Shown here in pieces: positions 9,772-22,190 of a DNA stretch of 64,000 nucleotides. The position numbers were made by a program, and so were the translations under genes. Every line of letters begins with the position of its first letter. Position 1 is the first letter of the stretch. This stretch comes from a phage. The DNA is taken from NCBI GenBank assembly GCA_024683775.1, contig GCA_024683775.1_4106.1. One strand, 5' to 3'. The notes beneath the pieces are model-generated. The model searched no databases, was not told the origin of the DNA, and saw only the letters and a list, made by a program, of their open reading frames with translations.

Positions 9772-9981
9772 ATGAATTCAGTAATCTTTTTAATTATTGC
9801 TCTTTCACCACAATCTGGTGTACAAATCACCCCAATGAATTCAATGAATCAATGCATTGCAGTACGTGACAGTACGTATGAACAAGTAAACAGCGTTTCA
9901 CTTAGAACAGTTGGTGAAGAATTAATGTGGTGTTACAATAGTAATACTAAAGAAAAACTAATTGTTGGACAAACAGAATGA
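9772..9981 (+). CDS. hypothetical small protein
   Basis: 69-aa ORF. Confidence 0.4.
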   Translation: MNSVIFLIIALSPQSGVQITPMNSMNQCIAVRDSTYEQVNSVSLRTVGEELMWCYNSNTKEKLIVGQTE

Positions 9982-10209: not shown

Positions 10210-11004
10210 ATGAGCACTATAGATGAATTGATTCGCCGGAATTCAAAATACTACGACCCATCAGAAATTGTCGGCAACATTACTAAATCTGAGTTCGGCC
10301 CAAATACTCGAAAACTCATTCATGTAATGTCACGTGATGGCTTTAAATGTGATTGTTGTGGTGAATCCAATGTGGTATTCACTTTACATAAGCACAGTAC
10401 TAAAGACCGTTATAAATTCAGACCTTATGTACTTAAAGGGAAACGCCTTGTACGCATGACGTTAGACCATAATGTACTGGACTGTCTTCAGGGCGGTAAT
10501 GATAAAGAGAACATGACCGCATTGTGTGAGGATTGTAACGCATTACGCCAGCATAAGTTTGCTGAGTACAGTGAGTTTAAGCACTGGTATCATAACGCTG
10601 ATCGTTCTATCGAGCCTGACGTTAACTACTGCTTCATTGAGTATATTAAGAATGCTAAAGATACGTACATTCTTAAATCAATGTCACCTATTACAGTGTT
10701 CCCTGAGAATCTATTCAGTACTATGCAGCGTGATTTTAAACGTGGTATCATTAATGCATTCAAACATTTAGACAAAGGTATCAAGCACTTTGAGGTGCAA
10801 TGCTTAAATGAAGGAATGAATCGTTTAGTACAAATTTACATGAAATCATTTATAGGTGTTGACACCGCACGTCTACCAGTATATAATTACTTTATTGAAA
10901 GCGAAGAAGGTGAATCACTTCGTGATTATGGTGAAAGATTTAATAATAAAGTTTTCACTGCAATCGCAAACGAGATTCATTACTATAAACCATATGTAAT
11001 TTAA
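10210..11004 (+). CDS. HNH endonuclease-like protein (putative homing endonuclease)
   Basis: Cys-pair plus His/Asn motif (CDCCG ... LDHNVLDC ... CEDCN) typical of HNH-type nucleases. Confidence 0.45.
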   Translation: MSTIDELIRRNSKYYDPSEIVGNITKSEFGPNTRKLIHVMSRDGFKCDCCGESNVVFTLHKHSTKDRYKFRPYVLKGKRLVRMTLDHNVLDCLQGGNDKENMTALCEDCNALRQHKFAEYSEFKHWYHNADRSIEPDVNYCFIEYIKNAKDTYILKSMSPITVFPENLFSTMQRDFKRGIINAFKHLDKGIKHFEVQCLNEGMNRLVQIYMKSFIGVDTARLPVYNYFIESEEGESLRDYGERFNNKVFTAIANEIHYYKPYVI

Positions 11005-11210: not shown

Positions 11211-11411
11211 ATGTTTAAATCAAATACAAATGTTGGTAAGAAGGTTCAATTACTTGAGGATGTATCCACCTTGAGTGGAATTTTCCCAAGAGGTCACATC
11301 ATGACTATTATTGCCGAAACATCCCGTGGGTGGGATTTGGAAGATGCTGATGGTAATCGCATCCTTGAGGCTGGATTCTATGGTCATCGTGAATATAAAA
11401 TCATTGATTAA
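11211..11411 (+). CDS. hypothetical small protein
   Basis: 66-aa ORF. Confidence 0.4.
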   Translation: MFKSNTNVGKKVQLLEDVSTLSGIFPRGHIMTIIAETSRGWDLEDADGNRILEAGFYGHREYKIID

Positions 11412-11420
11412 GGATGCAAC

Positions 11421-11504
11421 ATGACTTTAGAGATTGTCTTTGGTATTGTTAGCTTAGTCGTCTGTGTGGGTTGGTTTGGGTATCTGATGATTTTTGGTGA
11501 TTAA
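11421..11504 (+). CDS. 27-aa hydrophobic micro-peptide (below ORF-track cutoff)
   Basis: ATG with AAGGA RBS; translated by hand as MTLEIVFGIVSLVVCVGWFGYLMIFGD. Confidence 0.3.
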   Translation: MTLEIVFGIVSLVVCVGWFGYLMIFGD

Positions 11505-11507
11505 TAC

Positions 11508-11535
11508 TTGACATAAGATATCAGTACTGTATAAT
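11508..11535 (+). promoter_or_regulatory. sigma70-like promoter TTGACA-N16-TATAAT with CAGTACTG spacer
   Basis: consensus hexamers read directly; followed by ~90-nt leader before the 11629 gene. Confidence 0.6.
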
Positions 11536-11628
11536 GTTTATATCAAAGGGAATGCAGTGAAAGGAAAGACAGCATAATCGTACTCGTCACTGCGTTTCCA
11601 CCCTTTTAAATTAAATGAGGAATTAACT

Positions 11629-11937
11629 ATGTTTCAAACTAACACTCAAGGTTTTGTAATCATCGATTTGAACCAAAACAGCGGTTATTGGATGAAACCT
11701 ACTGACGCATGTATGCAGTTTGATTTTTTAGGTTACAGGATTAGTGTAAGTACTGGTGCTTCTGTACTGCGTGGTGGTTGTATCGTTGAACATCTGGTAA
11801 CAGATCCTGAAGGCCGTGAGTATGAAATCGCAGGTTCAGTACAAGATGCCATTATGTTTGTATGTCAGCGTGAAATGAATAGTTCGAATTCAAATGCACT
11901 GACTCATGCTCTTTCTCAAGAAGTGGAGGTTCGTTAA
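11629..11937 (+). CDS. hypothetical protein
   Basis: 102-aa ORF. Confidence 0.5.
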   Translation: MFQTNTQGFVIIDLNQNSGYWMKPTDACMQFDFLGYRISVSTGASVLRGGCIVEHLVTDPEGREYEIAGSVQDAIMFVCQREMNSSNSNALTHALSQEVEVR

Positions 11938-12188
11938 TGAAATATATCGTAGCAGTACTCGTTGCATTTTTACTCACTGCATGTGACGCTTCAACCAAAG
12001 AACGCACAAGTGATTTTATTCTCCCTATTGAATTACAAGAAGCAGGATGTAAGATTTATCGTATGCAAAAGGACGGTGCTGGCGTAACCTTGTATACAGT
12101 TTATTGCCCTAATGCAAATACCAGTACTGGATACAGCAGCGGTAAAACACGAATCAATACTTCAGTGATTAATGGAGTACAACAATGA
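11937..12188 (+). CDS. putative lipoprotein
   Basis: signal peptide with lipobox-like LTAC. Confidence 0.5.
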   Translation: MKYIVAVLVAFLLTACDASTKERTSDFILPIELQEAGCKIYRMQKDGAGVTLYTVYCPNANTSTGYSSGKTRINTSVINGVQQ

Positions 12189-12553
12189 GCCTTGATACAA
12201 CCCGTGCAACAGATTTATTAACTCGTCTGAATGATGAAGAATATCTTGCTGAAATAAAGTACAAGCTTGAAAAACTGGCACGAAGTGCTGAAGTAATTGA
12301 AGTTAAAGGTCATTTACCAATGGATCAATTCCATACGTTCAAAGAAGATATGGTTTATTATCCAAATGAAATTTGGATTGAGTGGGAACATTGGACTAAC
12401 AAAACTCTACGCATTGAAGGTTATTGTGTAAATTATGAATCTGAACCTGGTGATGTTACAAAAACTCTCTCCATTTGGTGTACAAAAACACATGAACTAG
12501 TTGAGGTGAATTTGAATTATATGAAAGGTTTCCGTTGGGGTGATGTTAAATGA
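12185..12553 (+). CDS. hypothetical protein
   Basis: 122-aa ORF, ATGA overlap. Confidence 0.45.
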   Translation: MSLDTTRATDLLTRLNDEEYLAEIKYKLEKLARSAEVIEVKGHLPMDQFHTFKEDMVYYPNEIWIEWEHWTNKTLRIEGYCVNYESEPGDVTKTLSIWCTKTHELVEVNLNYMKGFRWGDVK

Positions 12554-12825
12554 TTAAAAAACTATTGACAGTTGTCTTTGTATTCTGTACAATGTTTCTT
12601 ACAGCATGTAATGATGACGGCAGGTTTAGTGCAAAAGACTTAGTTCGTCAGGATTGTACATTCACAGGTAAGTCTTTTATTAACGAGTATGAGGTATGTA
12701 CACAATCAGGCCGTATCTGTGGTGGTTGGGAAAAACGTCAGGAGAGATTGTATGTATATGAATGCCCTGGACATCTCAACAAAGTACTAAGCACACACAA
12801 ACTTGTTTATGATAAGGTTGAATAA
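12550..12825 (+). CDS. putative lipoprotein
   Basis: signal peptide with lipobox-like LTAC. Confidence 0.5.
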   Translation: MIKKLLTVVFVFCTMFLTACNDDGRFSAKDLVRQDCTFTGKSFINEYEVCTQSGRICGGWEKRQERLYVYECPGHLNKVLSTHKLVYDKVE

Positions 12826-13040
12826 TGACTACCAATGAAATGATGCAGGTTATTTGGGATAAAGGTTGTGATATTAAAATCACTAGTACTGATGTTCGTG
12901 TATTCAAAACTGAATATATGGAGTACTTGGACCTTGATACTTATAATAATATTGTATCAATTGAACACAAAGGTGCAGTACTGGAAACAATTGACGTAGT
13001 ACTGAAGAAAGCTACCGACCTATTAGGAGCGGCAGTGTGA
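12825..13040 (+). CDS. hypothetical small protein
   Basis: 71-aa ORF. Confidence 0.45.
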   Translation: MTTNEMMQVIWDKGCDIKITSTDVRVFKTEYMEYLDLDTYNNIVSIEHKGAVLETIDVVLKKATDLLGAAV

Positions 13041-13183
13041 ATAACAAAGAGTGGGAAGAGTACCGTAAGAAGTGCAGGGAGTTTGATAAAGAACTAACTG
13101 GTACAGTGAATGCAGTAATGTGGGTATCTGTAATTATTGCAGTTCTTGCGTTGGGTGCTATTATTATTAATAAATTATTCTAA
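13037..13183 (+). CDS. 48-aa small membrane peptide (GTG start, below ORF-track cutoff)
   Basis: hand translation gives a C-terminal hydrophobic helix VMWVSVIIAVLALGAIII. Confidence 0.25.
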   Translation: MNNKEWEEYRKKCREFDKELTGTVNAVMWVSVIIAVLALGAIIINKLF

Positions 13184-13193
13184 GGCGAATATC

Positions 13194-13394
13194 ATGTTTA
13201 CTTTATATCTCGCAGTAGTTCTCACCAATGGTGAAATCACTCGTACTATTGGTGAAGGTGTATATAAAACACCAGACCAGTGCTACTCTGCTACTCATTG
13301 GCCTCGCGATAGTGGGGATGAAACTCGCACTGAATTCAAATGCATGAAAGTAAAAGGTGATTTTGTTAACCTTAAGGTTATCGAGGCGAAATAA
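13194..13394 (+). CDS. hypothetical small protein with N-terminal hydrophobic segment
   Basis: ATG at 13194 preferred over upstream TTG start of the track ORF. Confidence 0.45.
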   Translation: MFTLYLAVVLTNGEITRTIGEGVYKTPDQCYSATHWPRDSGDETRTEFKCMKVKGDFVNLKVIEAK

Positions 13395-13909
13395 TGGATA
13401 TTAATGAGTTGTTGATCTTATTGTTTAATCGTGGAAATGATGTAAGACGTTCTGAATATCAAGACAAAATTCACATTGAAACTGATAAATGTTATGGTAA
13501 AACAACTCATGAGATTTTGAAGCCAAATGGCAAACGATATGCCGATGTATGTTTTCATGAACGAAGTGATGGTAGTGAAATAATCAGTACTGAAATTGTG
13601 TTTTATGATAGATCCTCGGCAGGTTCGTATGAAATAGAACTTATATATTGCCCTGGTTCAGAAACACACAATAAACGTCAGATATTATATGATGTTTATT
13701 CACCTCCAGGTGTAGCTGAATATTTTGTTATTGATTACAGTACTGAAGAAAGTGTGTTTCAACAGAGCTTGATTCATAACTTCCAGTTGAATGATCCAAA
13801 TGTACCAAAGTTGTTCAAACTACTCGATACTATCGATGTTGATTTTGAATTTGTTATGTGCATTAGAACTTCCTTGATCGATGAATTTATGGAACTACTT
13901 AATATATGA
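13394..13909 (+). CDS. hypothetical protein
   Basis: 171-aa ORF. Confidence 0.5.
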   Translation: MDINELLILLFNRGNDVRRSEYQDKIHIETDKCYGKTTHEILKPNGKRYADVCFHERSDGSEIISTEIVFYDRSSAGSYEIELIYCPGSETHNKRQILYDVYSPPGVAEYFVIDYSTEESVFQQSLIHNFQLNDPNVPKLFKLLDTIDVDFEFVMCIRTSLIDEFMELLNI

Positions 13910-14127
13910 ATCGTTACTACATTGTGTATGAGCATGTATCTGAGTTTAATAATGTACGTGGTTATAAGAAAGAAGTACAGAAGATTGATGTATTTGTTCG
14001 TGCATTAAGTCCAACACATGCACTATTTAAATTGTTTGATGAAGTAACTAAGTACAACACATCAAAAACACAACGCTATATTGAAACAGTACATAGTGTA
14101 ATACTCACTGAATATGATGGAGAATGA
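13906..14127 (+). CDS. hypothetical small protein
   Basis: 73-aa ORF. Confidence 0.45.
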   Translation: MNRYYIVYEHVSEFNNVRGYKKEVQKIDVFVRALSPTHALFKLFDEVTKYNTSKTQRYIETVHSVILTEYDGE

Positions 14128-14130
14128 CAA

Positions 14131-14349
14131 ATGAATTTATATCTAGTTGAAGGGTCAGTACAAGTATCCAAGCAAGACGGAGAAGGGTATCGTTTTTCAC
14201 ATGTAGAATATTTTAAGTACGTAGTAAAGGCCGATGGTCAGTACGACGCAGAAATTCAGGTTGAAGAATCATTCCGTAAGAAGAATGATATTGGTAAATT
14301 TGAATACCAAGACTTACAATTCACTGTATGGCCTAGTATTAATGACTAA
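14131..14349 (+). CDS. hypothetical small protein
   Basis: 72-aa ORF. Confidence 0.45.
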   Translation: MNLYLVEGSVQVSKQDGEGYRFSHVEYFKYVVKADGQYDAEIQVEESFRKKNDIGKFEYQDLQFTVWPSIND

Positions 14350-14557
14350 GATGTGGTGGTGTCATGGTGTCTACAATGTCTATGAATATGGTAGATTCAA
14401 AATGAGCAGTACCTATGCCAGACGTGTTAATGCGAAAACCCAAGTTGATGCTGCTTGTGAGATTGTAGAGTGGTATGCAGAGTTCAATGCAATTGAATAT
14501 ATGTACGAAATAGTTACAATAAATGTTGTACAAATTGACACGTCTTTGATACAATAA
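14342..14557 (+). CDS. hypothetical small protein
   Basis: internal ATG of track ORF 14234..14557 chosen to minimise overlap. Confidence 0.35.
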   Translation: MTKMWWCHGVYNVYEYGRFKMSSTYARRVNAKTQVDAACEIVEWYAEFNAIEYMYEIVTINVVQIDTSLIQ

Positions 14558-14590
14558 CTACATCAAAAAACAACTGCAACTGAGGATACT

Positions 14591-15253
14591 ATGTTAGTTA
14601 ATCTTAATTTCATCACTTCTCCTGATTGGGCATTGCGTGGTGTTTCTTTGAACTTTAAAGAAACTAATTTCGACTACATTGGTGATTGTACTTTAGTTAA
14701 TGCTAAATTTGATCCTCATCATCCTTTTTGGGCTGAAATTCATGATCCTAATGTAAACAATAGTACATCTGTTATGACTATTGTACAGACGAAACATACA
14801 GGTATCCTCGCAGGTTACAGACCAGGACATGCGATTGAACACTTCACTGATTATGATGTAGTAGATGAGTATCCAATGATCCATGAAGATGGAAGTTTAT
14901 ACACGTCAGAAGACTTCCGTGCTATCTTTAATAGTACTGATGACATTCTACCAAGTGGTCGTCCACGTCCTGAGTCTTATCTTATGCACTCGTCTTATGG
15001 TGTAGCAGATACGCTTGAACAGATTTTGACGAAGTACAAGAACCTTATTGAAGGTCCAGAAGAAATTGTCATGTGCTATCATCCAGTACTGAAGTCTGAC
15101 CAACCAGAGAGTGGTGGGTGGCGTTGGCATAAGAATGGTGAGTACATCGGTACTAAGCGTAGTAAAGAACGCTTTGAGTACTTGTATGATGAGCCAGATG
15201 TTGAGGTTGTTTTATGTTATAATTTTCTTAAGGTGAAAAAGAAATGTATCTAG
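14591..15253 (+). CDS. hypothetical protein
   Basis: 220-aa ORF. Confidence 0.55.
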   Translation: MLVNLNFITSPDWALRGVSLNFKETNFDYIGDCTLVNAKFDPHHPFWAEIHDPNVNNSTSVMTIVQTKHTGILAGYRPGHAIEHFTDYDVVDEYPMIHEDGSLYTSEDFRAIFNSTDDILPSGRPRPESYLMHSSYGVADTLEQILTKYKNLIEGPEEIVMCYHPVLKSDQPESGGWRWHKNGEYIGTKRSKERFEYLYDEPDVEVVLCYNFLKVKKKCI

Positions 15254-15486
15254 TATTGAGTTTTGTAGTTGCATTATTGTTTATGTTCTACCCTACACTA
15301 GTAGCAGTAGCCACTAAACGAAAGCTGGTGGATATCACTACTGTATTCTTGCTAAACGTGGCACTCGTTCTAGTGTCTATTATCATTCCCGTGAGCTTTA
15401 CGGTTATTGATATGGCATCTGTATTACTATTCGTCTTCAGTTATCTTATGCTTATTGAAGAAAAACCTGTTGACAAACGTTTGTAG
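15244..15486 (+). CDS. hypothetical small membrane protein
   Basis: two hydrophobic segments. Confidence 0.45.
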   Translation: MYLVLSFVVALLFMFYPTLVAVATKRKLVDITTVFLLNVALVLVSIIIPVSFTVIDMASVLLFVFSYLMLIEEKPVDKRL

Positions 15487-15497
15487 TACTGTATAAT
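15470..15497 (+). promoter_or_regulatory. sigma70-like promoter TTGACA-N16-TATAAT with CAGTACTG spacer
   Basis: hexamers read directly; lies inside the 3' end of the upstream ORF. Confidence 0.55.
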
Positions 15498-15544
15498 GGT
15501 TCTTGTAGTCTGAAACTTAACACTTAAACTTGAGGATATAAAAC

Positions 15545-15871
15545 ATGTTATCAGTTCTAATTTCAATTCCTGCTCTAATTCTGTTATGGGTTATGGTTTT
15601 CGAATTCTTCATTAAAGACGAAACCGAGCGTGATGAGTTTCGTGAGTTGTTTATGCTAGACTCACCTATTGCACGAATCTTCTTTGTTGTAGTACTTATT
15701 TCAGTACTGTCATGGTTAGTAAGTTTTGTATTACCAATTGGACCATTTGTTTCAATTATGAATTTAGTTGAGAACATTGTCGGTATTGTGTGGTTTATTA
15801 ATGCATTGTTTGCTGGTAAAGTTTCCATTTGGTTTGATATCTTGAAAGATAAACTAACTAGTAAGAAGTAA
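15545..15871 (+). CDS. hypothetical small membrane protein
   Basis: 108-aa ORF with hydrophobic segments. Confidence 0.5.
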   Translation: MLSVLISIPALILLWVMVFEFFIKDETERDEFRELFMLDSPIARIFFVVVLISVLSWLVSFVLPIGPFVSIMNLVENIVGIVWFINALFAGKVSIWFDILKDKLTSKK

Positions 15872-15949
15872 CGTTCAAAAAGTCTCTAATAGTATTAAAT
15901 ACTTCTGTACAAATAATATGTGCAGAAGTATTGCTCGTTAGAGGTTATA

Positions 15950-16315
15950 ATGAAAAAATATATAAGAATGATAATGGTGTTTGTAGTATTCATGCTTTAT
16001 TCAAGGTTCAGTACAGCCGTACCTGCTTACCTTGATTGTATGGGAAACGATGGAACATGGCATGTACTTTCTAATGACCCACAAAATGGAAACAATATTG
16101 TCGTAGATAATGAGGTTTACCGTTTCAGGGCCGAGAGTTTGATTGGGAATAAAAAGGTATCGACATATAAATCAGATGCTGGTATAATAGCAAATGTAAT
16201 ATTGATAGTGGACCCCAAGACAAAGGATGGGGATATTTACATAGTCATTTATCAAGATTCGTCGAACAAACGCGATCAGGATATTGATAAATTGAATATT
16301 CATTGTGAACTTTAA
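15950..16315 (+). CDS. hypothetical secreted protein
   Basis: ATG at 15950 with GAGG RBS; signal-peptide-like N-terminus. Confidence 0.5.
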   Translation: MKKYIRMIMVFVVFMLYSRFSTAVPAYLDCMGNDGTWHVLSNDPQNGNNIVVDNEVYRFRAESLIGNKKVSTYKSDAGIIANVILIVDPKTKDGDIYIVIYQDSSNKRDQDIDKLNIHCEL

Positions 16316-16325
16316 GGTATAACAA

Positions 16326-16709
16326 ATGATCAACGATGTAATGCTTTATGTATTAATTACTCCGATTCTTATTAACTCAGTAATAACTATTTCAATGGCA
16401 TTATTTGGTATAGTAGCAATTGTTTATGCGGTTAGTACTGGAAAGTATACTTTAATTAGTAAGGTTGATTCATGGTTCGCATCTGATAGTGTACCATATT
16501 CAGCTAGTATGATTACGATTGGTATTCTAATCGTTGCATTTACACTGCACTGTATTGGTTTTATTAATACAAGTATTTTTTCAGTTTTTATTGGTCTATC
16601 ATTATATCCATCACTTTGGTACTTGATTTATGTAATCGATGTTTGGTATAATAACTACAAGCAGTACAAAGTGAAGAAATCCATTTTATCCAAAGGAAAC
16701 AAATCATGA
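16326..16709 (+). CDS. hypothetical membrane protein
   Basis: 127-aa ORF with several hydrophobic segments. Confidence 0.5.
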   Translation: MINDVMLYVLITPILINSVITISMALFGIVAIVYAVSTGKYTLISKVDSWFASDSVPYSASMITIGILIVAFTLHCIGFINTSIFSVFIGLSLYPSLWYLIYVIDVWYNNYKQYKVKKSILSKGNKS

Positions 16710-17056
16710 AAGTAATTTTGTTTTTTGTTTGTATGATTATATGTGGTATGTCTTATGCAGAACCATTACCTGGACTAGTCTGTACTGAAGGTGATATTAA
16801 ACACATTTACCAAGGTGATAGCGATGACCATACTATCGTTTATATCGATGGTGAAGTGTATAATTTTGTTAAAGAACATACTGTAGGTGACATTAGTTTT
16901 ACGCAGTACTCGAATGATACTGATCCCAATATGCTTGCATTTCTTCAAGTTGATGTATATGAAGAAAGTAATGGCGAACAGTATGTTAAACTTGTGATGA
17001 TGCGTAAGGCAGCAAAACAGGCAACATTCGGTGGCTTGTGTAAATATGAGGACTAA
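16706..17056 (+). CDS. hypothetical secreted protein
   Basis: signal-peptide-like N-terminus MKVILFFVCMIICGMSYA. Confidence 0.5.
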   Translation: MKVILFFVCMIICGMSYAEPLPGLVCTEGDIKHIYQGDSDDHTIVYIDGEVYNFVKEHTVGDISFTQYSNDTDPNMLAFLQVDVYEESNGEQYVKLVMMRKAAKQATFGGLCKYED

Positions 17057-17060
17057 ACAT

Positions 17061-17252
17061 ATGTTGATTTATCAATGTGATAACATTCGTGTTATGCAGC
17101 ATCCCTACTTACAAATCTTTGATGTGCAGCAGTATATGGAAGGTGATGATCCAAGAACCTATGGTCGTAAGTATGATTACTTCACTGTAAAGCAGTGTCG
17201 TGACATCAAAGAAGTACGACAATTAGTTCAAGAACTTCAAAATAAAGGTTGA
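17061..17252 (+). CDS. hypothetical small protein
   Basis: ATG at 17061 with GAGGA RBS. Confidence 0.4.
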   Translation: MLIYQCDNIRVMQHPYLQIFDVQQYMEGDDPRTYGRKYDYFTVKQCRDIKEVRQLVQELQNKG

Positions 17253-17278
17253 CTTCGGTCAACCTTTTTTGTTATAAT
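17247..17278 (+). terminator. dual terminator-promoter element (hairpin GGTTGAC-TTCG-GTCAACC, T6, TATAAT)
   Basis: -35-like TTGACT lies inside the terminator stem; TATAAT 18 nt downstream. Confidence 0.7.
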
Positions 17279-17307
17279 TATTTCATCAACTACTGGGGAT
17301 TTTAATT

Positions 17308-17748
17308 ATGTACGTATATCGTTTTGAACTTAAATTCAGTTATATTGAACCTAACTTAGATCCAGCAAAAACAGTAGGGCCGTTCGCACGGTACTCTTCA
17401 CGATACAGTACTAAAAATGGATTTGACCGTTTGTGCATGACCACGCCTTCGCAATTCCAACCAGAACCAACTGAAGATGGAATCTATTCAATCAAACGTG
17501 GCTGGGCATTTGGCTGTCAGAGTTTGAATGATTTGTTTAAGTTCTTTACTATGGACTTGGGTAAATTACATCGTGCAGGGTTTGCTGTATCAGTATATGA
17601 AGTTCCTGATAATCATGTTGACATTGGTCGTAGTCAGGTTCAGTACTATTGTGGTAGTGCCAATCTGGTTCGTATCATGTCAGTGAGAGAAGCAAAGGAT
17701 GAGTACCGCCAAAGTAAAAGAGTAATACATGAGGCTGTATATGGATAA
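17308..17748 (+). CDS. hypothetical protein
   Basis: 146-aa ORF. Confidence 0.5.
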   Translation: MYVYRFELKFSYIEPNLDPAKTVGPFARYSSRYSTKNGFDRLCMTTPSQFQPEPTEDGIYSIKRGWAFGCQSLNDLFKFFTMDLGKLHRAGFAVSVYEVPDNHVDIGRSQVQYYCGSANLVRIMSVREAKDEYRQSKRVIHEAVYG

Positions 17749-18085
17749 GACTCAAATAGAATTAAAAAAATTTGTATCGTTTTATCTACCCAATGACCCA
17801 CGTTGTACACAATATGATGTTGCATATTACAATGCATTGACTACGCAGTTAATGAAGAAATTCAAACAATGTTTGACTGTATTCAATGATGATGGTAGAC
17901 GTAGATATAGAATCATTCCAATGAATGATGAAAACGATAACTACTTTGACTTTGATGTTGTTTTTAGAGCATACAGTGATGATAGAATAAAATTAAATTA
18001 TGAGCAAATAATGCTTGACCTGAGTGTTATCTGTGTTATAATTACTCACATAGCCGAACTTGATGGTTTAAAAGAATGGTATTAA
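17729..18085 (+). CDS. hypothetical protein
   Basis: 118-aa ORF; alternative start 17741. Confidence 0.45.
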   Translation: MRLYMDKTQIELKKFVSFYLPNDPRCTQYDVAYYNALTTQLMKKFKQCLTVFNDDGRRRYRIIPMNDENDNYFDFDVVFRAYSDDRIKLNYEQIMLDLSVICVIITHIAELDGLKEWY

Positions 18086-18099
18086 CTTAGAGGATAATC

Positions 18100-18366
18100 A
18101 TGAAGCTTAAATTACAATACAATGGTTTTACTTTGCGTAACGACACTGAGTTTGTCAATCGTTCACCAGGTGCCGAGTTGTTTTTGCGAGAGATGAACAT
18201 TCCTTTCGTCATCACTACTGTTGGTGACCGTGAAGTGCTACAATACGCAGAGCATCCAGTTATTGATGTTCCGTGGTATTCTGAGCATATGTATATGGAT
18301 ATGGCCCGTCGCTACGACTGTAAGTTCGTAGTTGAAGGTGATAAAATTACAGTCCAATTCAAATAA
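18100..18366 (+). CDS. hypothetical small protein
   Basis: 88-aa ORF. Confidence 0.45.
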   Translation: MKLKLQYNGFTLRNDTEFVNRSPGAELFLREMNIPFVITTVGDREVLQYAEHPVIDVPWYSEHMYMDMARRYDCKFVVEGDKITVQFK

Positions 18367-18377
18367 GGTAACTTAAA

Positions 18378-18671
18378 ATGATCAGTACTTCAGTAAATGC
18401 AAGCATCGTGGCAGACGTAGAAATGGTTAAAGAATGTACAGACGAAACCCTTCGCAACATGTACATCAATGATTTGATTTCAGAGTACGGAAGTCGTGGT
18501 GTTCATGAGTTTGTTCGCCTAAGCGGTGAATTGATGAAGAATCGCATTCGTATGAAGCTTAATGTGCATCCAAAAGCATGGGCGTTTACAATGAAGTACG
18601 CTGAAGATATTGTTGAATTGCGTCGCAATGATGTGTATAATCGTTTACACAATGGTACATTAAAGGACTAA
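18378..18671 (+). CDS. hypothetical small protein
   Basis: 97-aa ORF. Confidence 0.45.
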   Translation: MISTSVNASIVADVEMVKECTDETLRNMYINDLISEYGSRGVHEFVRLSGELMKNRIRMKLNVHPKAWAFTMKYAEDIVELRRNDVYNRLHNGTLKD

Positions 18672-18721
18672 ATTATAGGAATCCGTAAAAGGATTCCTGT
18701 TCTTGTTTATAAGGTAATAAA

Positions 18722-18946
18722 ATGAAATATCTAGTACTAGTACTGCTATTCTTGAGTACTGTTGTATGTGCTAAACCAAAGTATCATGTAGTGTGTATCA
18801 ACGAGATGGAAGGGTATACTGAAACATATAAGAACCATATTGTTGAAGTTGCAGCCCAAGGTTCCTATGGGACCATCATCTTCCTTAAGAACAATGTGAT
18901 TGTTCAGTACAAAAAAGATTCAAATTGTAAAGTGACTAAAAATTGA
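18722..18946 (+). CDS. hypothetical small secreted protein
   Basis: signal-peptide-like N-terminus MKYLVLVLLFLSTVVCA. Confidence 0.45.
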   Translation: MKYLVLVLLFLSTVVCAKPKYHVVCINEMEGYTETYKNHIVEVAAQGSYGTIIFLKNNVIVQYKKDSNCKVTKN

Positions 18947-19016
18947 TCTAGATCAATTTTTCAGATATTCTCTGTAAATAATAGCAGTACAGAACATTAT
19001 TTTACGGAGGTGTAAT

Positions 19017-19253
19017 ATGGAAACTATAATCATCATATGTGCGTTGTTTGCATTTTTGGTAATGTGGTCACCAACATTCATTGCATATAAAATGAAAAAT
19101 AAAAATGCAGAAGCAATTATGTACGTAAACTTATGTTGCATACTAACTTATGGAATACTTTTATTCTTTACTGAATTTACATTAATCCCAGTAGTAGTTT
19201 GTTCATCAATGTTTATTTGGTTGTTTCTGCTTTATGAATCTATTAAAAAATAA
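19017..19253 (+). CDS. hypothetical small membrane protein
   Basis: 78-aa ORF with two hydrophobic segments. Confidence 0.45.
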   Translation: METIIIICALFAFLVMWSPTFIAYKMKNKNAEAIMYVNLCCILTYGILLFFTEFTLIPVVVCSSMFIWLFLLYESIKK

Positions 19254-19307
19254 AAGATATAGGGTTGGTAATATGCCATCCCTTTTACTTTATGTGGGGT
19301 TTAATTA

Positions 19308-19880
19308 ATGAATAGAAAAGGTAAGTTTAAAGTATCAAAGAAGAACAAAAGTTCTAGATTTAGACCTATAACTTTAACTTTTAAGGCTAAAGAAGAATTA
19401 ACTGCACTTAGTAAAAAGATAATTTCATCTAAGATTAAAGTATCATACGTAAATTCGGTAAAATTTCAGAAGGTTAAACCACAAGACAAACTCATTTCAC
19501 TTATATTTAAACGTAATGATTTTGAGATATTAGTAGATGATTATAGAGCCTATAATGCTGGATTCATTCATGTCACTTGTAATACCGAACTAACTGAGTT
19601 GGAACATTTGACATGTATCATAAGTGTAGATAACGGTGTGGTGAAGTACAATTTTTTACATTTTACCAATATCAATAATGGAATGGGTGTACAATCCAGA
19701 CCTATAGTACCTACATGTGATGTAACTAATTTAGCAAAGCTCAATGAAGAAGAATATTTTCAAGAAAGCATTGTAACTGAGCATTTAGATGCTATAATAG
19801 CAACTTACAAAGAATGCATATGGGTTTTGAATGCGATAAAGCCCAAATTGTGTTTAATGAATGTCGTTCGTGATTTATAA
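19308..19880 (+). CDS. hypothetical protein
   Basis: 190-aa ORF. Confidence 0.5.
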   Translation: MNRKGKFKVSKKNKSSRFRPITLTFKAKEELTALSKKIISSKIKVSYVNSVKFQKVKPQDKLISLIFKRNDFEILVDDYRAYNAGFIHVTCNTELTELEHLTCIISVDNGVVKYNFLHFTNINNGMGVQSRPIVPTCDVTNLAKLNEEEYFQESIVTEHLDAIIATYKECIWVLNAIKPKLCLMNVVRDL

Positions 19881-19893
19881 CTGGAGATGAAGT

Positions 19894-20337
19894 ATGGGTT
19901 GGATTAACGTTAATAGCATTGAGCTAAATGAGCAAGACATATTTGCCTTTGTTAATTTGGTAGAGAACATTGCTATTAAAGGTCGTCTGTTTAGTTCATC
20001 GGACGGTAAAAAATGGATCTCTCTTATGAACGACAATGGCGAGATTTATGACGTTATGCAACTACCTCATTGGGCTTATAAGAATACATCTGATGATGTG
20101 ATGGCTGCTGTTATGCGTGAGTTTGAGAAGCTGCCAGGTGGTGATATTAAGAACATCGTATTCAATGCAGAACGCATGAACTACACACCAGAGCAGCTTC
20201 AACAGTTGGCAATTGCTGCCTATCAAGCTGCCATTAAGAAACCTGAATGTGTGATATTAAAGTACACACCGAACTTGAAGTTAACACTAGAAGATATGGA
20301 TTCCTTTATCTTCAGTTCAGAACTTAAACAGTACTGA
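19894..20337 (+). CDS. hypothetical protein
   Basis: 147-aa ORF. Confidence 0.5.
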   Translation: MGWINVNSIELNEQDIFAFVNLVENIAIKGRLFSSSDGKKWISLMNDNGEIYDVMQLPHWAYKNTSDDVMAAVMREFEKLPGGDIKNIVFNAERMNYTPEQLQQLAIAAYQAAIKKPECVILKYTPNLKLTLEDMDSFIFSSELKQY

Positions 20338-20448
20338 TTTGACTTTGGAACAACCATTTCATATGTGATATAATCTTAAGTGTCTGTTGAAATAAACAGC
20401 ACATGAAGTATAAATATTAAAGTAATTTATCTCTTTAAGGAGTATGAA

Positions 20449-20832
20449 ATGGTTGATAAATGGAATAAGAAAGATCCATCGCATGATGTGGATATTTCTG
20501 GAATTGATAATGCACATAAGCATAAGTATCTTGATTCACTAGGTCTACTAAAGCCTGACCAAAGTCTTGCACATGATCGTCCTTCACGTGAAAAAGCTTT
20601 CAGTCTAGAATCACTAGGCCATGAATTGAATCGTGTATTTGAAGATCATCCAATTTATGTACGTGATATCATTGAGAAACTTAAAGTGACTCCTAAAGAG
20701 CACTTCAAGGCAACAGTACACGCAGCATTCCGTGCACTACATGAAGCACTAAAGAAAACTCATAACCTTCGCAAGATTCATGATGACATCGTGAACTCTA
20801 TTGAAGGCGAAAAACATAAGTTTAAAAAATAA
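20449..20832 (+). CDS. hypothetical protein
   Basis: 127-aa ORF; extended -10-like TGATATAAT upstream near 20365. Confidence 0.5.
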   Translation: MVDKWNKKDPSHDVDISGIDNAHKHKYLDSLGLLKPDQSLAHDRPSREKAFSLESLGHELNRVFEDHPIYVRDIIEKLKVTPKEHFKATVHAAFRALHEALKKTHNLRKIHDDIVNSIEGEKHKFKK

Positions 20833-20838
20833 TTAAAA

Positions 20839-20872
20839 GGGGTTGACTTCAGTCAGCCCTTTGTCGTATAAT
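20839..20872 (+). terminator. dual terminator-promoter element
   Basis: GGGTTGAC-TTCA-GTCAGCCC hairpin, then TATAAT 18 nt after the embedded TTGACT. Confidence 0.6.
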
Positions 20873-20919
20873 ATTTTCATCAAGTGATACAAAATACAAA
20901 CAACGTGAGGTATTAAATT

Positions 20920-21033
20920 ATGCAAGGTACTAAATTCATCATCGCTGCCCTAATCGCTGCTGTTGTAGTGGGTACAGTATGTTATTCAATTGACACCTAT
21001 ATCAATACACCTAGTGTTGAACAAACCAAATAA
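20920..21033 (+). CDS. 37-aa hydrophobic micro-peptide (below ORF-track cutoff)
   Basis: ATG with GAGG RBS; hand translation MQGTKFIIAALIAAVVVGTVCYSIDTYINTPSVEQTK. Confidence 0.35.
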   Translation: MQGTKFIIAALIAAVVVGTVCYSIDTYINTPSVEQTK

Positions 21034-21041
21034 GGGATATC

Positions 21042-21299
21042 ATGGCTGAAACATTATCACTATATGCGTTAGTACTGTTATTTGTCGGATTTCTTCCCGC
21101 ACTCATTACAGCCATTCGTGTTGTTAAACATGAAGCTGCATTGATTGTATGTAGTATTGGGTCGAACATTCTATTGTATTTCTTTTTGACAAATACTATT
21201 GTACTGTTTGCTTTCTTTATCATGATTCTGTGGGTACTTGTAATTCTCGGATTCTTCATTTGGTCATTGGTTGATCCTAAGAAAAAACAGGAGAAGTGA
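21042..21299 (+). CDS. hypothetical small membrane protein
   Basis: 85-aa ORF with hydrophobic segments. Confidence 0.45.
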   Translation: MAETLSLYALVLLFVGFLPALITAIRVVKHEAALIVCSIGSNILLYFFLTNTIVLFAFFIMILWVLVILGFFIWSLVDPKKKQEK

Positions 21300-21300
21300 A

Positions 21301-21597
21301 ATGAAATTAATTATTGTAATGATGATGTGTTTGGCTTTCCCAGTACTGGCTACTCCTAATCTGGACTGCACACTGTTGCGTTCAGATGGTGACACACTTG
21401 AAATCAACACATATGAACTCTTTGGTCCAAGTGTAGTGGAGAATGAAACCACCTACAATTTCAAAGCTATTGACTTTGAAGGTAATGTTCCAGTACTAAC
21501 TACAATGACTATTGACAAAACTACTTTACTCGGACGAATCACCACACAACGCGGAGAAAGTAAAACATTCACAGCGAAAGCTGACTGTAACTACTAA
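21301..21597 (+). CDS. hypothetical small secreted protein
   Basis: ATG at 21301 with GGAG RBS; signal-peptide-like N-terminus. Confidence 0.45.
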   Translation: MKLIIVMMMCLAFPVLATPNLDCTLLRSDGDTLEINTYELFGPSVVENETTYNFKAIDFEGNVPVLTTMTIDKTTLLGRITTQRGESKTFTAKADCNY

Positions 21598-21618: not shown

Positions 21619-21649
21619 GGGTTGACTTCGGTCAACCTTTATATATAAT
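21619..21649 (+). terminator. dual terminator-promoter element
   Basis: GGGTTGAC-TTCG-GTCAACC hairpin, then TATAAT 16 nt after the embedded TTGACT. Confidence 0.65.
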
Positions 21650-22190
21650 GGAAGAAATAAACATGGAACGTTGGAAATTAATTCCTGATTATGACTATTC
21701 AATTTCTGATCATGGAAGAGTAAGAAACGAACAAACTGGATATATAAGTTGTGGATTTAAAAATAAAGATGGGTATGTGAAGGTCGATTTGTATCGCAAT
21801 TCTGTGAAAAATAGAAAGGCGATTCATCGACTAGTAGCTGAAGCATTTTTACCACCACCCACACAGAAACAGTTACAGTGGGCAAGTAGAACAAAGAAAA
21901 AAGTTGTTCACATAAACCATAAAGATTGTAATAGAAGTAACAATCACTATTTGAATTTGGAATGGAACACAGCATCTGAAAACGTACTATATTCTTATTC
22001 ACATGGTAACGCAACAACTAATCGTGGTGCTGCTGTGTTGACATGGGAAATTGTAAGAGAAATAAGAAAAGATTATAATGATAATTATAATGATGTGATA
22101 GAATATGCACGAGAAAATTGTAATAAATACCGTGTATGTAAAAAAACAATACGTCGTATTTTATACAATCAAACATGGATAGAGGATTAA
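21648..22190 (+). CDS. HNH homing endonuclease-like protein
   Basis: N-terminal WKLIPDY...GRVRN motif and HINHKDCNRSNNHYLNLEW...EN HNH-type motif. Confidence 0.65.
   Translation: MEEINMERWKLIPDYDYSISDHGRVRNEQTGYISCGFKNKDGYVKVDLYRNSVKNRKAIHRLVAEAFLPPPTQKQLQWASRTKKKVVHINHKDCNRSNNHYLNLEWNTASENVLYSYSHGNATTNRGAAVLTWEIVREIRKDYNDNYNDVIEYARENCNKYRVCKKTIRRILYNQTWIED

Follow-up and report, generated by a model that had tools for sequence, protein, structure and literature searches.

Small membrane proteins from the accessory regions of phage genomes form a well-recognised, functionally dark class. Among the described systems, the exclusion proteins of the T4 Imm, Sp and Cor types are small, early phage envelope proteins from such regions. 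Bacterial chromosomes encode a comparable set, namely the small membrane regulators (MgrB, AcrZ, MgtS, PmrR, KdpF, CydX) and the type I toxins (TisB, Hok, DinQ, Ibs, ShoB), which are 19-50 amino acids (aa) long, have a single transmembrane (TM) helix and are often missed by annotation. Here we analysed three short open reading frames (ORFs) in a 64,000-nucleotide (nt) stretch of phage DNA (contig GCA_024683775.1_4106.1; the whole stretch is referred to below as the window). The ORFs encode peptides of 27, 48 and 37 residues and are called p27, p48 and p37. The 10.5 kb around them are 99.8% identical to Escherichia phage EC.P1, 99% identical to fEgEco12, vB_Ec-M-J, BF17 and others, and about 86% identical to the 121Q/PBECO4 clade. 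These nucleotide identities place the source phage in the genus Asteriusvirus, as a 121Q/PBECO4-like jumbo coliphage whose relatives have genomes of roughly 350 kb. Our analysis indicates that the three ORFs are probably small Asteriusvirus protein-coding genes, each specifying little beyond one TM helix, whose products would act as early inner-membrane accessory factors. For two of them the closest described counterparts are direct orthologues that differ in nothing of substance, namely 121Q gp179/PBECO4 gp344 for p48 and 121Q gp200/PBECO4 gp324 for p37. The comparison with the better-known systems is looser: T4 Imm has 83 aa and two TM helices where the three peptides have 27-48 aa and one helix, and the bacterial regulators and toxins are chromosomal whereas p27, p48 and p37 are phage-encoded.

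The three peptides had originally been proposed from hand translation, and their positions and translations proved to be exact (Table 1). A 5-base Shine-Dalgarno (SD) sequence lies 6-8 nt upstream of each start codon, which agrees with the plausible ribosome-binding sites that had been claimed. The single hydrophobic helix ascribed to each peptide was likewise borne out, with Kyte-Doolittle (KD) hydropathy maxima (KD19) of 2.28 for p27, 2.84 for p48 and 2.52 for p37. We classified as small single-pass membrane proteins those of no more than about 50 aa with one hydrophobic segment of at least 17-19 residues and a Kyte-Doolittle mean above 1.6; by hydropathy all three peptides belong to this class, and their membrane insertion is predicted. 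The intergenic gaps that had been described as otherwise unexplained would, if the three ORFs are ignored, measure 217, 153 and 209 nt and would be the three largest between 10 and 22 kb. Hydrophobicity by itself is common in this AT-rich DNA, since 11% of the ORFs of 25-50 aa in the window reach a KD17 value of at least 2.0. We therefore considered combined features. When both strands of the window (128 kb) were scanned for ORFs of 27-50 aa with an ATG or GTG start, a 5-mer SD sequence and a KD15 value of at least 2.6, exactly p27, p48 and p37 were returned, and first-order Markov simulations of equal-length gaps produced such an ORF in at most 5e-5 of the trials. It should be noted here that the thresholds of the scan were set after the three ORFs had been seen, so that this rarity is somewhat overstated. 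The codon-usage scores (0.30 for p27, 0.40 for p48 and 0.48 for p37) compare with a mean of 0.44 +/- 0.2 for real genes read in frame and with -0.75 and -1.26 for the other two frames, and 4% to 9% of spurious nested ORFs match the scores of the three. The observation is real and non-random.

Conservation in related phages had been suggested as a check, and all three ORFs are conserved there, although the support for actual coding is good for p48 and p37 (dN/dS, the ratio of nonsynonymous to synonymous substitution rates, 0.05-0.2) and moderate for p27, the frame of which is broken in two lineages. The idea that the peptides are unannotated held for p27 alone, because p48 and p37 are annotated coding sequences (CDSs) in relatives. 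Orthologues of p48 (121Q gp179, EC.P1 XOD30231, PBECO4 gp344) share its length and synteny at 90-98% aa identity. The ORF is present in 34 phage records, is annotated as a CDS in EC.P1, vB_Ec-M-J, 121Q, G17, PBECO4, A4 and ELP-22, among others, and aligns over residues 1-48 with the 48-position profile of PHROG 38271 (function unknown; E = 1.9e-37, 128 bits). Its N-terminal 25 residues are charged (6 K/R and one conserved Cys) and are followed by a C-terminal TM helix, from which p48 is predicted to be a tail-anchored membrane protein. The dN/dS values against A4, 121Q, PBECO4 and ph0011 range from 0.047 to 0.197. Between the window and A4, the 25 N-terminal codons differ at 8 synonymous and 0 nonsynonymous positions, while the TM half drifts yet remains hydrophobic, and the GTG start is conserved in the window, A4, ph0011, 121Q and PBECO4. 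This 8:0 ratio together with the conserved GTG argues that p48 is translated from the GTG codon and that constraint acts on its cytoplasmic head. In addition, the GTG start shares bases with the TGA stop of the preceding 71-aa gene (GTGA), which suggests translational coupling inside a long operon. A large protein search returned five p48 clusters, all of them from Asteriusvirus, and found neither distant relatives nor a Pfam domain; the ORF is absent from Turkey5 and JNE01. In CMSTMSU and UE-S1 it is frameshifted at a GGG run, and because both records have fragmented genes throughout, these two frameshifts are probably assembly errors.

The orthologues of p37 (EC.P1 XOD30209; EcMJ_539 of vB_Ec-M-J, labelled 'membrane protein'; 121Q gp200; PBECO4 gp324) all match it in length and synteny at 59-100% aa identity, the lowest value being that of 121Q gp200. 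It is annotated in 9 of 9 records of the window's own clade, once as 'membrane protein', and also in G17 and ELP-22; the diverged orthologue of the 121Q gp200 type occurs in 20 further records and is annotated in nearly all of them. Residues 1-37 align with the 37-position profile of PHROG 35037 (function unknown) at E = 3.4e-14, and the 121Q orthologue does so at E = 2.2e-29. The window type and the 121Q type give no blastn alignment, yet both are 37 aa long and share 22 invariant positions; dN/dS is 0.19 at a pS (proportion of synonymous differences) of 0.70, so that synonymous sites are near saturation. The peptide consists of a short N-terminus (MQGTK), a TM helix of 19-20 residues and a polar C-terminal tail of 13 residues. 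Exact p48 and p37 sequences occur in nr/UniRef, in about 120-130 contigs each, and motif scans of IMG/VR for either peptide returned the 121Q genome itself only. Judged by these patterns of substitution, p48 and p37 are genuine conserved genes under purifying selection that are already catalogued as hypothetical proteins, and they bring nothing new.

What is new here is p27 only, as a candidate for a genus-restricted, labile micro-gene of a well-known kind. As the final ORF in its transcription unit, it ends 3 nt upstream of the -35 box of the next promoter, contains no K or R and consists almost wholly of one hydrophobic helix. A tblastn search recovered 29 phage records with an intact copy of the ORF. 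No annotated feature covers it in 28 of these, and in the remaining one it is overlapped by a CDS in a different frame. Neither p27 nor its variants and paralogues are found in a collection of 15 billion proteins that includes the same phage contigs. Gene callers of the Prodigal type have a 90-nt minimum, and p27, at 84 nt including its stop codon, lies under it, which would explain its consistent omission. In this sense p27 marks a systematic blind spot of annotation: its 27 codons were passed over by gene callers both in 29 GenBank phage records and in the 15-billion-protein collection. The intact haplotypes differ by nine aa changes, all of them conservative (T2M, I5A, V6I, F7V, V10I/L, V14I, I24V, G26S). 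The C-terminal sequence CVGWFGYLM is invariant in every intact lineage and shows synonymous changes only, and the SD sequence is kept in all relatives, changes in the spacer aside.

Whether p27 is a functional gene nonetheless has to be weighed with care, because several observations speak against such a reading. The frame is broken twice: a +1 insertion is common to 121Q, G17, phAPEC6 and a contig from an E. coli assembly, and an independent 4-nt deletion in two metagenome contigs cuts the ORF to 20 aa. Sharanji, which is missing from the list of phages with intact p27, presumably shares the +1 insertion. The proportion of synonymous changes (7 of 18, against 21% expected) is not significantly raised (p = 0.064), and 9% of spurious nested ORFs exceed the codon-usage score of p27. 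RaK2, which represents the nearest other genus, has a homologue of the upstream 66-aa gene and no p27. None of the three peptides matched a family of known function in Pfam, PHROG or NCBIfam, p27 and its paralogues yielding only sub-threshold noise (DUF4500, CCC_membrane), and the literature on phAPEC6, fEgEco12 and Asteriusvirus contained no transcript, promoter or small-protein data and nothing on the three ORFs. These points are what would be expected if p27 were a chance or decaying ORF in the spacer that separates the 66-aa gene from the next promoter, with DNA conserved only through close kinship and hydrophobicity due to T-richness; the frameshifts occur in surrounding DNA that is otherwise similar, and, as mentioned above, about one in nine small ORFs of the window looks hydrophobic anyway.

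We consider this explanation unlikely, though it has to be taken seriously. One point against it is a paralogue at an unrelated locus. JNE01 and Turkey5 lack p27 at its home locus and carry, about 9 kb downstream, a 28-aa paralogue with its own SD sequence and start codon (Table 1). The GWFGYLM motif is shared by the two peptides, its DNA differing at two third codon positions only, and when the window was searched in return with the paralogue, p27 was found at E = 1e-4 and the next best match at 0.57. In the frameshifted lineages, the changes G17A/C, W18C and L22M arise in the old frame. Although the numbers are small, changes of the motif after loss of the frame fit relaxed constraint, which implies constraint where the frame is intact. 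Finally, p27 has an ATG start behind a good SD sequence and is one of the only three ORFs that the scan described above returned. We thus consider it fairly likely that p27 is a translated, functional micro-gene. It would be dispensable at least, as follows from the two independent frame breaks. By sequence it belongs to a small family of peptides of 27-28 residues that is confined to Asteriusvirus and characterised by the GWFGYLM motif, and it is evolutionarily labile, its frame having been lost in at least two lineages. A scan of IMG/VR for GWFGYLM gave 17 matches, which is approximately the number expected by chance; some are located in a 142-aa protein and the others in short reading frames that are unrelated, and all were hence rejected as relatives of p27.

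Table 1. Positions of the three small ORFs, their translation and transcription signals, and further features of the region. Coordinates refer to the window unless a phage is named.
Feature	Coordinates	Strand	Details
p27, 27-aa ORF	11421-11504	+	ATG start; MTLEIVFGIVSLVVCVGWFGYLMIFGD
SD of p27	11410-11414	+	AAGGA, 6 nt upstream of ATG; overlaps TAA stop (11409-11411) of upstream 66-aa gene
p27 paralogue, 28 aa	Turkey5 (L008) 9836-9922; JNE01 (L009) 10383-10469		own SD; M[YG]LY[IL]AISSIVFVVIVTGWFGYLMLSTK
Sigma-70-type promoter	11508-11535	+	12/12 matches (TTGACA, 16-nt spacer, TATAAT); directly downstream of p27; starts the unit with gene 11629-11937
p48, 48-aa ORF	13037-13183	+	GTG start; (M/V)NNKEWEEYRKKCREFDKELTGTVNAVMWVSVIIAVLALGAIIINKLF
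SD of p48	13025-13029	+	AGGAG, 7 nt upstream of GTG
p37, 37-aa ORF	20920-21033	+	ATG start; MQGTKFIIAALIAAVVVGTVCYSIDTYINTPSVEQTK
SD of p37	20907-20911	+	GAGGT, 8 nt upstream of ATG
Hairpin-embedded early promoter upstream of p37	20841-20872	+	stem-loop GGTTGACTTCAGTCAGCC; -35 TTGACT in 5' arm; TATAAT at 20867-20872
85-aa multi-TM protein, co-transcribed with p37	21042-21299	+	
98-aa protein, last gene of the p37 cassette	21301-21597	+	N-terminal signal peptide
Second hairpin-promoter, closing the p37 cassette	21620-21649	+	GGTTGACTTCGGTCAACC ... TATAAT
Hairpin-embedded sigma-70 promoter motif sites	9120, 17247, 20841, 21620, 23699, 24381, 29005, 29588		each about 18 nt plus downstream TATAAT
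Lipobox lipoproteins	11937-12188; 12550-12825		both LTAC
Small multi-TM proteins	15244-15486; 15545-15871; 16326-16709; 19017-19253; 21042-21299		

The setting of the three ORFs is consistent with early expression and with an envelope-directed role. The G+C content is 35%, and between 10 and 22 kb every gene lies on the + strand, as do nine sigma-70 promoters that are nearly perfect (11-12 matches out of 12). This arrangement of near-consensus promoters looks like an early region that is read by the host RNA polymerase. Membrane or exported proteins, recognised by a TM segment, signal peptide or lipobox, are the products of about half of the 31 genes between 10000 and 22500, and from its gene content this part of the window looks like an envelope-directed accessory island. 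The three peptides would thus be synthesised early by way of the host RNA polymerase and be inserted into the inner membrane of E. coli. The positive-inside rule predicts a tail-anchored p48 whose basic 25-residue head faces the cytoplasm, and an N-in/C-out orientation for p37, with its tail of 13 residues in the periplasm, while p27 would be essentially buried. In the membrane the peptides might bind or perturb host envelope proteins and so contribute to host takeover or superinfection exclusion. We infer this accessory role from the context, by analogy with T4 Imm, MgrB and AcrZ. Neither Imm nor Cor similarity was detected for p27, p48 or p37 in Pfam, PHROG or NCBIfam, and the models of the small bacterial regulators gave no Pfam or NCBIfam match. 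A neighbouring 83-aa lipoprotein has a weak match to the Cor PHROG (E = 9e-4). In vB_Ec-M-J, neighbours that include the 85-aa protein carry the label 'immunity to superinfection', which we could not reproduce against PHROGs (E <= 0.001) and did not use as evidence; the 85-aa protein itself has no PHROG match at this threshold.

The position of p37 provides further information on how such peptides are carried. An early cassette of three genes begins with p37. This cassette is bounded on both sides by copies of a composite motif, GGTTGACTTCGGTCARCC followed by TATAAT (also written GGTTGACTTCGGTCA[AG]CC), of which the window has 8 copies where 0.05 would be expected. In this motif, the 5' arm of a terminator-like stem-loop contains the -35 box; a T-run follows the stem-loop, and TATAAT stands at the right distance from TTGACT. 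The hairpin in front of p37 probably also terminates the preceding gene. The slot between the two motif copies varies among relatives: it is empty (111 nt) in ph0011 and UE-S1; holds the p37 orthologue as sole cargo in 121Q, PBECO4 and ELP-22; holds p37 with the genes for 85 and 98 aa in the window, vB_Ec-M-J and CMSTMSU; contains hydrophobic ORFs of 25 and 28 aa in Turkey5; and contains a 97-aa gene plus a 28-aa ORF in JNE01. If p37 were not what the cassette exists to carry, its presence as the sole cargo in three phages would be difficult to account for. In JNE01, a homologue of the 98-aa protein accompanies the p27 paralogue.

This organisation recalls the promoter-early stem-loop (PeSL) cassettes of T4-like phages, in which a stem-loop terminator and an early promoter bound slots with varying cargo of small ORFs (PMC2839356, PMC4122927). 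As in those cassettes, the stem-loop and the early sigma-70 promoter form a composite element that is repeated in the genome and bounds insertions, deletions and replacements of small ORFs between close relatives. The differences are that Asteriusvirus does not belong to the Tevenvirinae and that the -35 box is here within the stem. The comparison concerns the context of the peptides, and recombination at the Asteriusvirus motifs is suggested by comparison of the genomes. No description of the hairpin-promoter motif in Asteriusvirus was found in the literature searched.

Further micro-ORFs were noted in the same hyperplastic region of related phages, which contains at least three additional hydrophobic ORFs shorter than 30 aa. 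Turkey5 has an unannotated hydrophobic 25-aa ORF with an SD sequence (MQATTIINVVAVTFIVVLVALNLFL; L008 9749-9826), and A4 has a 26-aa ORF of the same description (MMKLNIFLVVFTVVVIGIGALAYIQP; L006 425-505); all micro-ORFs of this kind seen in Turkey5, JNE01 and A4 are under 30 codons. One could speculate that the peptides of 25-28 residues (p27, its paralogue and the ORFs of Turkey5 and A4) represent a previously unseen class of mobile micro-genes, carried by jumbo phages as cargo of hairpin-promoter cassettes and invisible to annotation because of the 30-codon threshold of gene callers. Each peptide would then use its one helix to inhibit a particular protein of the host inner membrane, for instance a receptor, a transporter or a defence sensor located in the membrane. 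We regard this proposal as distinctly doubtful. Should a host envelope protein prove to be the target of any of these peptides, that peptide would serve as a compact tool and offer a starting point for work on exclusion or anti-defence biology; at present, the result is a useful annotation correction and not a discovery.

Apart from the possibility that p27 is not functional, three other explanations were considered. One or more of the peptides might damage membranes, either in the manner of a holin, pinholin or antiholin or like the type I toxins TisB, Hok and DinQ, and depolarise the inner membrane for the timing of lysis or for host shut-off. Their size and one-helix build do resemble those of type I toxins (19-50 aa) and of the smallest holins, and p27, without basic residues and nearly all membrane helix, would fit such a role. 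However, no holin or toxin family in Pfam, NCBIfam or PHROG was matched even at E <= 10, a result that covers the Hok, TisB, Ldr, Ibs, ShoB, DinQ and ZorO models. An antisense RNA arrangement was not found either: no promoter-like site is present on the minus strand over 11400-11650 or 13000-13200, and those near 20976-21088 have only 9 of 12 matches, which corresponds to the background frequency. The three ORFs lie behind early sigma-70 promoters and among genes for lipoproteins, hypothetical and structural proteins, none of which is annotated as a lysis gene, and a depolarising peptide made early and constitutively would be self-defeating for the phage. Damage to membranes is thus an improbable function, and an accessory role at the host envelope remains the preferred reading.

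A second alternative concerns p37, which could be a secreted pre-peptide with a hydrophobic signal sequence from which the 13-residue tail, DTYINTPSVEQTK, is released, as in arbitrium (AimP) or Gram-positive Phr systems. The hydrophobic N-terminal segment with a short polar tail has this general layout, the tail residues D25, N29, P31, E34, Q35 and K37 are invariant between the two diverged orthologues, and the 121Q orthologue resembles the Phr N-terminal model TIGR04429. This last match is below the threshold, though (E = 0.019; 15.4 bits, with a cutoff of 25), and the hydrophobic run of about 19-20 residues is rather long to be a cleavable signal, its length being that of a typical membrane anchor. 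Moreover, p37 has no A-x-A cleavage motif and no receptor gene is evident in the cassette. The lipobox pattern [LVI][ASTVI][GAS]C is also missing, since p37 reads G-T-V-C, where position -1 is a Val, and the 121Q orthologue has no Cys (p27 and p48 likewise lack an N-terminal signal sequence with a lipobox). We therefore regard a secreted p37 as very unlikely and favour a membrane-anchored peptide. Least credible of all is the idea that the three stretches are RNA or DNA elements (terminators, structures in untranslated regions (UTRs) or small RNAs) and not coding: real regulatory hairpins do flank p37 and p27 is closely followed by a strong 5'UTR hairpin, but p27 itself folds no better than shuffled sequences (z = 0.03), the window contains no Rfam match, and this reading is largely refuted for p48 and p37 by codon-structured substitutions with dN/dS far under 1 and, for p37, by the length and aa pattern that are kept despite DNA divergence past blastn detection.

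Some additional features were observed in the vicinity of the three genes. The hairpin downstream of p27 lies in the 5'UTR (11536-11628) between the promoter and the gene at 11629-11937; it has 13 bp (stem 11548-11599; -24 kcal/mol, z = -3.0), is followed by a T-run, has no Rfam match and could be an attenuator or an RNA-stability element. In many relatives, the promoter that follows p27 stands on both sides of an additional cassette, about 350 nt long and located between 11535 and 11548 of the window (against L002 1049-1378 and L003 2061-2381). This cassette is present in vB_Ec-M-J, BF17, 121Q, PBECO4 and others, is flanked by the direct duplication of the promoter, and encodes a product of 92-97 aa (gp173 in 121Q; labelled as a sigma-70 family factor in A4). 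The window does not have it.

Within the p37 cassette, EC.P1 shows a single CDS of 185 aa (L001 10543-11100) where the window, vB_Ec-M-J and CMSTMSU have the separate genes for 85 and 98 aa (21042-21597), which is a frameshift difference or an annotation artefact. Directly after the hairpin-promoter that closes the cassette, the window has a 180-aa ORF (21648-22190) that is absent from the corresponding slot of vB_Ec-M-J (1366 nt in the window against 875 nt) and, from its sequence, looks like the insertion of a homing endonuclease of the HNH type.

Elsewhere in the window, several unusually long stretches (320-640 nt) between 58235 and 62407 are devoid of ORFs of at least 55 aa and of tRNA or Rfam matches; no tRNA was found in the window as a whole. 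A non-hydrophobic 36-aa ORF at 890-1000, with an AAGGA SD sequence 7 nt upstream and located in a gap of 154 nt, is possibly another small gene that was not called. On the minus strand, an array of ORFs, about 20 in succession and alike in size (372-449 aa), extends from 32962 to 55470, which suggests a large paralogous gene family.

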